A stretch of DNA of 64,000 bases from Escherichia phage 132, in the sequence record MZ417521. One strand, 5' to 3'. This document shows, in pieces, positions 30,039-32,043 of this stretch (the stretch's first letter is position 1; the number at the start of each line of letters is the position of its first letter). The notes below the pieces were generated by a model, which worked only from the letters and a program-made list of their open reading frames with translations, had not been told where the DNA came from and did not search any database. The position numbers were made by a program, and so were the translations under genes.

Positions 30039-30341
30039 TTATTTACCTTTAATTACTTTAGCTGCTTCGATAGCCGCTTGCTGAAGGTCATCCATAGACA
30101 TACCGAATTTAGAAGCAAAGTTATCAATTTTCTTTTCGACAGCATTCAAAGGCTTGGCCTGTTTACCTTCATTAGCGCCAGGAAGAGCGAGAATACGCTC
30201 TTTGTCAATATAAAGGCTTACAAGTTTCTTACGGTCTTTATCGGACAAATCGTGAAATGAATGAGCCTTTTTATTTATAGCGGCTTCTAATTTACCTGCA
30301 CTCACTCGCGCTTCAGTAATAAATTCTTGATATGTTTTCAT
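30039..30341 (-). CDS. ipII: Internal protein II-like (capsid-targeted, injected with DNA)
   Basis: 100 aa; N-terminal capsid-targeting sequence MKTYQEFITEA; same size and position as T4 IPII. Confidence 0.6.
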   Translation of the reverse strand: MKTYQEFITEARVSAGKLEAAINKKAHSFHDLSDKDRKKLVSLYIDKERILALPGANEGKQAKPLNAVEKKIDNFASKFGMSMDDLQQAAIEAAKVIKGK

Positions 30342-30354
30342 ATGTTTCCTTTAA

Positions 30355-30378
30355 ATGTAAATAGGCCGTATAGGCCTT
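30355..30378 (-). terminator. Possible terminator after ipIII-like gene
   Basis: AGGCC-UAUAC-GGCCU hairpin with a moderately U-rich tail. Confidence 0.3.
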
Positions 30379-30379
30379 A

Positions 30380-30958
30380 TTAATTACCACGGGCTGCATT
30401 AGCAACGGCGTAAGCGTACTGAACATTAGCGTCTTTAAACGTACCTTTAGAGGTGTCTATTTCTGCCTTAAAGCCGCCTTTAGCCATAACATCGGCAAAT
30501 TCTTTACGGAAAGCCATTGCATCAAGACCTTTCCATGATGATTTATGCTTGGCAAATTCAAGACCAGCGTAGTTGACAGCTTTAGCCAATTTATTATCAA
30601 TGACCCATTTACCAGCTTTAGGCACAAACACCGGGCCTTTCTGTTTAGAGAATAGTTTTAAATTCCAGCGACGAAGGTCACCGTCGGCTTTAACAAAAGC
30701 TGCGTCTAAGTTACTAGCAACAACATCTTCAATATGAGCAAATTTAAGCCCATCAACTTCAATATTTAGATCGTTACGCCAGCGTAGTCCTTCCCAAGCG
30801 AAGGCTTTAAAATCAGAAGCTTTTGTGGCTAGATATCGTTCAAGTGGAGCAGTTTTAGGATCAAAGCCGTTTCCGCCACGATAATTCCACTCGTCCTTAT
30901 TAATGCCTTGGACTTTTCCTGCAAAGGCCTCGGCGATAAATTCTTTATATGTTTTCAT
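30380..30958 (-). CDS. ipIII: Internal protein III-like (capsid-targeted)
   Basis: 192 aa; N-terminus MKTYKEFIAEA; basic Ala/Lys-rich; early promoter upstream. Confidence 0.6.
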   Translation of the reverse strand: MKTYKEFIAEAFAGKVQGINKDEWNYRGGNGFDPKTAPLERYLATKASDFKAFAWEGLRWRNDLNIEVDGLKFAHIEDVVASNLDAAFVKADGDLRRWNLKLFSKQKGPVFVPKAGKWVIDNKLAKAVNYAGLEFAKHKSSWKGLDAMAFRKEFADVMAKGGFKAEIDTSKGTFKDANVQYAYAVANAARGN

Positions 30959-30989
30959 TTTTTGTTTCCTTGTTTGTTTTGATAGAGTA

Positions 30990-31019
30990 ATTATACCATA
31001 TTAATACTTAAGCGTAAAC
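30990..31019 (-). promoter_or_regulatory. Early sigma70-type promoter
   Basis: Minus strand GTTTAC-N18-TGG-TATAAT; upstream of ipIII-like gene. Confidence 0.65.
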
Positions 31020-31022
31020 AAT

Positions 31023-31283
31023 TTAAGCTTTACCGCCAGAAATAATTCCGAAGTTGTTAAAATCGTATTCAATATCGTCAACATCTACTTTAGGACTTGC
31101 TACGACATAAGCAATTTCACTACGTTTTGCATAGGTGTTGATTTCTTTACCATCGCCACCTAAGAAAGAATACCCATTACGTTTTAATGAGCCAAAGTCT
31201 TCCGCATCACCAATGAAAGCTTTAACTTTAAATTTTGGACCTTTGGCATCTGCTTCAATGATAAATTCTTGGTACATTTTCAT
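31023..31283 (-). CDS. Additional capsid-targeted internal protein candidate
   Basis: 86 aa; N-terminus MKMYQEFIIEA; starts directly after the denV stop. Confidence 0.55.
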   Translation of the reverse strand: MKMYQEFIIEADAKGPKFKVKAFIGDAEDFGSLKRNGYSFLGGDGKEINTYAKRSEIAYVVASPKVDVDDIEYDFNNFGIISGGKA

Positions 31284-31289
31284 TTTTCC

Positions 31290-31703
31290 TTAGTAAATTG
31301 ATTTACCATAGTATTTGTACCAAGTCGGGCGCTGAGCAATTTTTTCATCTAAGCGAGCTTGACTTATCGCAATGGACGCTTCGGACGGGACATAATTATT
31401 ACGAAATTCGACAGGGATGTCGGAAATATCCTGGACAGTCGTGTCCTTGATTTTGAAACCACGTTTCAAGCATTCAGCGATTAGCTCGATTTGACGTAAA
31501 CGTAAAAATTCGAGTTTGTCGTAAAAGAATGTTACGTGACCTGTGCCTAAGATAAATGTTGGAGAGATTTTAAAATCCTTTACACGTTTACCGTTTTGAA
31601 CATGTTTACGGACTGCACCAAATACGCGTGGTAATTCACGATACTCAGCCATAAGATGTTGGTCGGTCAGTTCAGAAACAAGTGTTAAATTGATACGAGT
31701 CAT
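31290..31703 (-). CDS. denV: Endonuclease V (pyrimidine-dimer DNA glycosylase/AP lyase)
   Basis: Start at [12 protein letters not shown]... (GGAGGAAATT SD); matches T4 DenV; early promoter upstream. Confidence 0.9.
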
Positions 31704-31730
31704 AATTTCCTCCAAGTAGTTGATGAATGT

Positions 31731-31760
31731 ATAGTATCAAAGTCCTTGGAGGAAGTAAAC
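31731..31760 (-). promoter_or_regulatory. Early sigma70-type promoter
   Basis: Minus strand GTTTAC-N18-TGA-TACTAT; upstream of denV. Confidence 0.6.
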
Positions 31761-31761
31761 A

Positions 31762-32043
31762 CTATTTTTCTGAAGCGCCTGAGATATATTTTTCAAGACG
31801 TTGTTTCATTAGCGAGCCGTTCTTAGCGATTTCTTCTGGTTTATCGCACATACGCAACAAGGCTTCAAGCTTAACGATATCGCTGGTACGTTCAAATTTG
31901 CGAGTATCTATCTTACTAGCAAGTTCAGAAATACGTGCTAATAGACTTTCAGCTTCAACCAAAGCTGCACCTAGCTTAGTTGCAAATGTGTCAGTAGCTT
32001 CGTTAAGAATAGATTCTGATAAAAATTCACTATATGTTTTCAT
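31762..32043 (-). CDS. Additional capsid-targeted internal protein candidate
   Basis: 93 aa from internal ATG, N-terminus [10 protein letters not shown]; ATG overlaps the stop of gene e. Confidence 0.55.

Follow-up and report, generated by a model that had tools for sequence, protein, structure and literature searches.

Six genes with a capsid-targeting N-terminus in the T4-like Escherichia phage 132, including two candidate inhibitors of type IV restriction beside denV

The 64,000-nucleotide stretch of Escherichia phage 132 that we analyzed (sequence record MZ417521; the whole stretch is called the window below) is a Tequatrovirus (T4-like) segment, and its closest relatives are Tequatrovirus phages at 97% identity. 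The genes considered here encode proteins that begin with the capsid-targeting sequence (CTS) of the T4 internal proteins (Ips), and two of them, here called X and Y, lie on either side of the endonuclease V gene denV. Escherichia phages vB_EcoM_SP1 and W143 share 97% identity with the region around these genes (positions 29900-32600); matches to all or part of this region were found in 833 phage records, 64 of which cover at least 80%. On the minus strand, the gene order is a vs.8-like gene (29387-29989), ipII, ipIII, X, denV, Y, the lysozyme gene e and nudE. Two more CTS genes in the window, Ip7 and Ip9 (39103-39411 and 39472-39744), were absent from the list of an earlier, model-made reading of the same DNA (the first-pass annotation). 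The genes are as follows, with an arrow at the putative cleavage site.

30039..30341, minus strand: ipII orthologue, 100 amino acids; CTS MKTYQEFITE↓A; 93% identity to T4 IpII; phrog_7857 'internal virion protein', E = 4.5e-55
30380..30958, minus strand: ipIII orthologue, 192 amino acids; CTS MKTYKEFIAE↓A; 90.6% identity to T4 IpIII; phrog_5341, E = 2.5e-117
31023..31283, minus strand: X, 86 amino acids; CTS MKMYQEFIIE↓A
31290..31703, minus strand: denV (endonuclease V), 137 amino acids; 91% identity to T4 DenV; annotated as endonuclease V in relatives
31762..32043, minus strand: Y, 93 amino acids; CTS ending LSE↓S; apparent diverged Ip5 homologue
32040..32528, minus strand: lysozyme gene e, 162 amino acids; 94% identity to T4 e
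39103..39411, minus strand: Ip7, 102 amino acids, ipI locus; CTS MKTFKEFINE↓A; 99% identity to T2 Ip7
39472..39744, minus strand: Ip9, 90 amino acids, ipI locus; CTS MKTFKEFINE↓A; 94% identity to RB32 Ip9; phrog_7673, E = 1e-54

The first-pass annotation had described four open reading frames (ORFs) around denV and e, all starting with MKTY. When read from the sequence, the four ORFs were found where it had placed them, on the minus strand, each with a CTS N-terminus; the MKTY start held for three of them, but the third (31023-31283) reads MKMY. Its labels ipII-like and ipIII-like were borne out by orthology to T4 IpII (93%) and IpIII (91%). The start that it had chosen for the fourth gene was also correct, as the ATG at 32043 carries the CTS, although the mechanical ORF runs to a TTG at 32058. 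The ATGA overlap that it had reported between this gene and e is present as well: e ends with ...GCG TAT ATA TGA, in which the stop codon occupies positions 32040-32042 and the start codon of Y positions 32041-32043.

We ran a loose CTS regular expression, M[KR].[YF].[ED][FYL][ILVM].E, on the six-frame translation of the window. It matched six times, in each case at the N-terminus (first ATG) of an ATG-started ORF, and had no match in 200 nucleotide shuffles or in 200 residue shuffles, a count far above chance. The phage therefore has six CTS proteins, compared with three in T4. In experiments with IpIII, the first ten residues were enough for packaging, including that of foreign proteins, with residues 4 and 7 mostly responsible for targeting and residues 8 and 10 for processing by the prohead protease gp21, which cuts after L/I-x-E (summarized in PMC9026906). 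All six ORFs retain these experimentally defined determinants (Y/F4, F7, L/I8 and E10), and the gp21 motif is present at the leader end, at positions 8-10 or up to ~19 (ITE↓A, IAE↓A, IIE↓A, LSE↓S). Y has a further LNE15↓A, which is conserved with ITE15↓S of Ip5. Because (L/I)13-x-E15 is the site common to both proteins, the mature N-terminus of Y is probably Ala16, which would make its leader ~15 rather than ~10 residues long.

On sequence comparison, Y appears to be a diverged homologue of Ip5. It is 48-51% identical over the full length to the Ip5 proteins of T2, PP01 and RB70 (Repoila et al. 1994; UniProt Q38378; E from 1e-21 to 1e-25), a profile search with Y recovered the Ip5 of T2 and RB70, and Y matched phrog_3499 'internal head protein' with E = 1.2e-46. 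The two proteins share the motifs KLGxALxEAExLxxRIxEL and EIAKNGSxMKxRLE as well as a CTS-type N-terminus with the conserved (L/I)-x-E15 cleavage site. Y differs from Ip5 in that its gene is located between e and denV instead of in the ipI locus and is coupled to e, in its extra L-S-E10 site and in a C-terminus that is longer by 6 amino acids. A 100% identical protein occurs in more than 130 phage records, under the RefSeq name 'internal head protein'; Y-type proteins (at least 80% identity) were found in ~238 records and Ip5-type proteins in ~258. The records of ime09 and Lutter have both a Y-type and an Ip5-type match, at two places each. The AlphaFold2 model of Y is a compact three-helix bundle with a mean predicted local distance difference test score (pLDDT) of 77, which resembles small protein-binding inhibitors, and in a fold search the only significant match among predicted viral structures was an Ip5-type protein.

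X has a predicted mature form of 76 amino acids (8.2 kDa; isoelectric point (pI) 5.3). It was found in 217 phage records, mostly as a 'hypothetical protein', although some RefSeq records call it 'internal head protein'. Among the 1.84 billion proteins searched, very few relatives were found; the informative ones are 30-38% identical to X, and all of them start with a CTS (MKTYNEFIAEA, MQTFHEFLVEN, MKTFQEFINEA, MKSFDQYIMES). With the CTS removed, mature X had no detectable relation to Ip7, Ip9, IpII or Y, and only the CTS aligned with Ip5, of whose family X is not a member. These comparisons suggest that X is a small family of its own. For X and Y alike, Pfam and NCBIfam gave no match, and a search of Protein Data Bank sequences gave nothing below E = 0.03.

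Two apparent relatives of X were rejected. X matched phrog_2667, the 'internal head protein' family of Ip7, with E = 3.6e-21, and alignment with Ip7 by hhalign reached 88% probability with the CTS, but only 0.6% (E = 0.097) without it; because the signal vanished on removal of the CTS, kinship with Ip7 was rejected. A 534-amino-acid repeat protein (P0029) matched X only over a short repeated stretch (X positions 24-46) and was judged unrelated. X has an internal deletion in some phages and metagenome contigs, and one protein fuses the N-terminus of DenV to the C-terminus of X (P0006, P0011, P0027, P0030), which indicates that some lineages are losing X and, together with it, denV.

We computed the ratio of nonsynonymous to synonymous polymorphism (pN/pS) for X and Y across five phages, with up to 12 synonymous differences. 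The values were 0.04-0.30 for X and 0-0.14 for Y. X starts 6 nucleotides after denV, and its ATG is preceded, at a distance of a few bases, by the Shine-Dalgarno sequence AAGGA. X and Y are thus real genes under purifying selection. The claim that X and Y have no T4 counterpart holds for the two Ip loci of T4: tblastn against T4 62.5-75.5 kb gave no match with X and only 11-residue CTS matches, at ipII and ipIII, with Y. The assignment of all four genes to the T4 internal-protein class agrees with the orthology of IpII and IpIII, the homology of Y to Ip5 and the family of X, all with a CTS.

X and Y are encoded in a variable Ip locus (the two such loci being vs.8-e and 57B-trna.4), as compared with T4, T2, Bas37, Bas45, W143 and phiD1 (fD1). 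We compared the vs.8-e interval in nine phages, the window and eight others, and found it to be a hotspot with seven arrangements, listed here from e to vs.8.

T4: e, ipIII, ipII, denV (2 Ip genes)
T2: e, ip4, without denV (1 Ip gene)
Bas37: e, denV (0 Ip genes)
phiD1: e, denV, ip4 (1 Ip gene)
Window, JoYop and mogra: e, Y, denV, X, ipIII, ipII (4 Ip genes)
W143: the order of the window plus a CTS gene of 104 amino acids (5 Ip genes)
Bas45: the order of W143 minus ipII (4 Ip genes)

The presence of Ip genes thus varies among close relatives. X and Y are missing from T4; in Bas37, vs.8-e contains no Ip gene, and neither X nor Y was present when this phage was checked for them; and in Bas45 (PaulHMueller; MZ501098) Y is 100% and X 95% identical to the proteins of the window. 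The 104-amino-acid gene of W143 and Bas45 (MKTY(K/Q)EFIAES...; L003 2819-3133 and L008 9809-10123) is located between ipIII and X, where the window has just a 64-bp spacer with a promoter. According to the junction alignment, each cassette in the locus is headed by an early-type promoter, GTTTAC-N17/18-TA(C/G)TAT. This includes denV, the non-Ip gene between X and Y, whose private promoter is shared by T4 and the window. From the promoter positions in the junction alignments, the [denV] and [ipIII-ipII] cassettes are in reverse order in the window compared with T4, which is consistent with shuffling via the repeated promoter sequences. As judged from these alignments, the locus appears to be a mosaic in which promoter-led cassettes differ in order and content from phage to phage.

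Y itself is a precise insertion of ~282 bp between e codon Tyr161 and the denV promoter, with TATA(A/T)GAAAA-like microhomology to the Ip leader at the junction. Because Y is inserted into the last e codons, the C-terminus of e is altered: the last three codons are replaced (KNL-stop by I-stop), so that in the junction alignment the protein ends ...TWKAYI instead of ...TWDAYKNL and is two residues shorter than T4 e. The regulatory features found around these genes are listed below.

32524..32564, minus strand: e leader, with late-promoter boxes TATAAATA at 32542-32549 and 32555-32562, in or beside a hairpin (pattern search)
31731..31760, minus strand: early-type promoter GTTTAC-N18-TACTAT ahead of denV, directly after the Y stop codon; aligns with the T4 denV promoter
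30990..31018, minus strand: candidate ipIII promoter TTTACG-17-TGgTATAAT (consensus scan, 10/12, extended -10)
30363..30377, minus strand: terminator-like hairpin in the ipIII-ipII gap (consensus scan)
30007..30036, minus strand: second 'e-proximal' early promoter cassette GTTTACTTTCTCCTAGAATTGTGATAGTAT, between ipII and the vs.8-like gene

The hairpin of the e leader pairs the Shine-Dalgarno sequence and start codon of e (RNA folding energy -14.8 kcal/mol, z = -4.8). T4 e has such an arrangement, in which only late transcripts are translatable, as reportedly described by McPheeters et al. in 1986. No promoter of its own was found for Y. As Y is coupled to e, and as the ribosome-binding site of e would be exposed only in transcripts from the two late promoters, we infer that Y is synthesized late, during prohead assembly. 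From X onward on the minus strand, the first terminator-like site in the consensus scan is the hairpin between ipIII and ipII. The promoter at 30007-30036 is nearly identical to one directly downstream of e in T4, T2 and Bas37, and Ip7 and Ip9 are each preceded by a GTTTAC/ATTTAC-N18-TACTAT promoter. A perfect TATAAATA box also occurs at 30272-30279 inside the ipII coding sequence; because the window contains 13 late-promoter boxes, compared with 11.3 expected by chance, this box is probably coincidental.

Several internal proteins have been matched to their targets. Ip1, Ip2 and Ip3 are inhibitors of GmrSD-type type IV restriction enzymes, each acting on one distinct enzyme without cross-protection, and the proposal that all genes of the two Ip loci are type IV restriction inhibitors is already in print (PMC12373910). 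T4 IPI* (Ip1), the inhibitor of GmrSD of E. coli CT596, has a CTS leader removed by gp21 and a mature form of ~8 kDa, hundreds of copies of which are carried in each head and enter the cell with the DNA; the protein is non-essential and host-specific (PMC3012670, PMC4437046). It shares no sequence similarity with X or Y beyond the CTS; its leader has 19 residues, and its fold is alpha/beta, in contrast to the all-helical structure predicted for Y. Ip2 and Ip3 of T4, which act against the GmrSD variants of ECOR21 (BrxU-type) and ECOR17, respectively, have orthologues beside X and Y that share their hotspot and CTS, but X and Y are unrelated to them in sequence. IpIII is required on ECOR17 and acts without the CTS when supplied inside the cell (PMC9391042).

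Two other proteins of the class are close to X and Y in organization. Bas37_0260, a 77-amino-acid CTS protein of Bas37, inhibits McrBC (HIDEN-SEQ preprint, bioRxiv 10.1101/2025.11.20.689424). Like X and Y, it is a small CTS protein in an Ip hotspot that is unrelated to Ip1-Ip3. Its assigned target is a type IV restriction enzyme. Unlike X and Y, it is encoded in the ipI locus, and its sequence is unlike every CTS protein of the window. Ip4 of T2 and phiD1 is encoded in the same vs.8-e hotspot and has the CTS MKTYQEFITE↓A, also found in the window, but is 157 amino acids long, and blastp gave no significant match between it and X or Y (E ≤ 1e-3).

We consider it probable, at roughly 65%, that X and Y, together with the neighbouring IpII and IpIII orthologues, are T4-type internal head proteins that are injected and likely inhibit type IV restriction. 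The N-terminal CTS would bind the scaffolding core during prohead assembly, and gp21 would then cut the leader after L/I-x-E, in X after Glu10 and in Y after Glu10 and/or the family-conserved Glu15. The mature proteins (~8-9 kDa) would be retained in the head and ejected into the cell with the DNA, where each would most likely block one host nuclease that attacks glucosyl-hydroxymethylcytosine DNA, a type IV enzyme of the GmrSD/BrxU or McrBC type. Packaging, cleavage, ejection and an anti-restriction target are inferred for X and Y from the class to which they belong, since structure prediction identified no target. The first-pass annotation had proposed a counter-defence role for such proteins; this part is supported and accords with the published experiments on other members of the class, but it is not new. 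The observation is thus confirmed and the interpretation supported, and both the class and its X and Y members are already in databases and the literature.

The closest experimental lead for the Y/Ip5 family comes from Bas37 (KarlGJung), in which bas37_0261 (L009 10364-10621) is an Ip5 with 96% identity to PP01 Ip5. In a supplementary table of the preprint on this phage, insertions in bas37_0261 were ~4-fold depleted on CFT073 compared with K-12 (log2 fold change -2.09, q ~0) and unchanged on CFE299; those in the upstream gene 57B were likewise depleted on CFT073, as expected from polarity (bioRxiv 10.1101/2025.11.20.689424). This depletion, which the authors of the preprint did not discuss, is the only hint, and an indirect one, at relief of restriction.

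Several observations weigh against the interpretation of X and Y as injected restriction inhibitors. The CFT073 signal belongs to Ip5 and not to Y, and it stands in a preprint table that its authors did not follow up. The literature searched yielded neither virion proteomics nor genetic work on X or Y; proteome data exist for phiD1, but this phage lacks X and Y, and the paper on the fPS phages contains no proteomics. X has Met in place of Thr at CTS position 3, and Y has two extra conserved L/I-x-E sites (LVE30↓A and ISE40↓L) that are potentially cleavable by gp21. Mature X and Y (pI 5.3 and 6.3) are acidic or near neutral, in contrast to the basic IpII, IpIII and Ip7 (~pI 9.6), which at the same time argues against a role as a counter-ion of DNA. 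Structure prediction, which the first-pass annotation had proposed as a check, succeeded for Y, but the bundle is a generic fold that indicates no target; the model of X was unusable (pLDDT 44, from a shallow alignment of 4 sequences) and likewise indicates none. The genes for the gp21 protease and the gp22 scaffolding core presumably lie beyond the end of the window, to judge from the T4 map position.

An unlikely reading, although the one that survives best beside type IV inhibition, is that X and/or Y are packaged and injected but act against another defence, such as abortive infection, a toxin-antitoxin system or another nuclease. Just four CTS proteins have assigned targets, with which X and Y share only the CTS; the fold of Y is like that of generic small inhibitors, including the epsilon antitoxin; and the injected T4 protein Alt has different targets, as it affects Mokosh and MazEF. 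However, the Ip targets known so far are all type IV restriction enzymes, and an effector delivered together with the DNA would best suit first-response nucleases.

It is very unlikely that X and/or Y enter the head as filler or core proteins, for head assembly or DNA packing, and have no part in counter-defence. In IpIII mutants, heads mature more slowly and the burst is smaller (PMC9026906), and Y might be cut at its conserved internal sites (LVE↓A and ISE↓L) into small peptides, like the core proteins gp22, gp67 and gp68. However, these sites lie within predicted helices of the folded bundle, neither X nor Y is basic, and Bas37 and T2 are both viable, the former with no Ip gene and the latter with only ip4 at vs.8-e. 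In addition, disruption of Ip5 was neutral on K-12 and caused a defect on one tested host, CFT073.

We regard as highly improbable the view that the CTS-like N-terminus is a relic of recombination and that X and/or Y are cytoplasmic accessory proteins that are not packaged. The unusual Met3 of X, the lack of a late promoter dedicated to X, which follows the early gene denV, and the CTS-independent function of IpIII supplied in the cell (PMC9391042) are compatible with this view. However, the four critical CTS residues are intact in X, in Y and in the divergent relatives 30-38% identical to X, which is unexpected for a relic, and foreign proteins are packaged when they have just ten residues of the IpIII CTS (PMC9026906). 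Finally, the view that the ORFs are non-functional, for which the deleted and fused X variants (P0006, P0011, P0027, P0030) might speak, is effectively refuted by the conservation pattern, namely pN/pS values of 0-0.3 with many synonymous differences, the 100% conservation of the Y protein in more than 130 records, the good Shine-Dalgarno sequence of X and the translational coupling of Y to e.

Matching X and Y to their targets would complete the known picture rather than alter it. From Repoila et al. 1994 onward, at least ten Ips have been described, as noted in PMC12373910. Since 2025, four internal proteins have been matched to type IV restriction enzymes, while most of the at least ten families remain orphans; X and Y are two such orphans, and widespread ones. 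Because both occur in Bas45 of the BASEL collection, such matching is feasible. Host defences meet internal proteins before any other phage molecule, and these proteins help to set the host range, a role that is relevant to phage therapy with T4-like phages. Were X or Y to inhibit a defence other than type IV restriction, the CTS delivery route would extend to a new class of counter-defence. We think it fairly unlikely that X or Y has such a target or, more modestly, that each acts on an unassigned variant of the GmrSD, BrxU or McrBC type, with Y/Ip5 acting on something in CFT073.

Some further observations concern CTS genes elsewhere and the surroundings of the two loci. Bas37, Bas45 and phiD1 have CTS-like ORFs at a third location as well, flanked by the e.x genes on one side and the tRNA cluster on the other; these ORFs start with MKSYTQFLNEA (157 amino acids) or MKTYAEFLTEA (187 amino acids) (L009 5529-6092 and 6218-6691; L008 15393-15866; L010 11943-12416). 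The 187-amino-acid gene was scored 'essential' in Bas37, and the window has no equivalent. Mature Ip9 has homologues without a CTS in unrelated phages: a free-standing ORF of 72 amino acids in Kagunavirus siphophages is 51% identical to it (L011 1204-1422), and it resembles the C-terminal domain of a large Kuttervirus protein at 34% identity (L012 1-1461). These homologues suggest that Ip genes arise when an existing accessory domain acquires a CTS by fusion. Between the two Ip loci of the window, at 37224-38051, lies a cluster of ten tRNA genes (Arg, Asn, Tyr, Met, Thr, Ser, Pro, Gly, Leu and Gln), the composition of which is unlike the T4 set.

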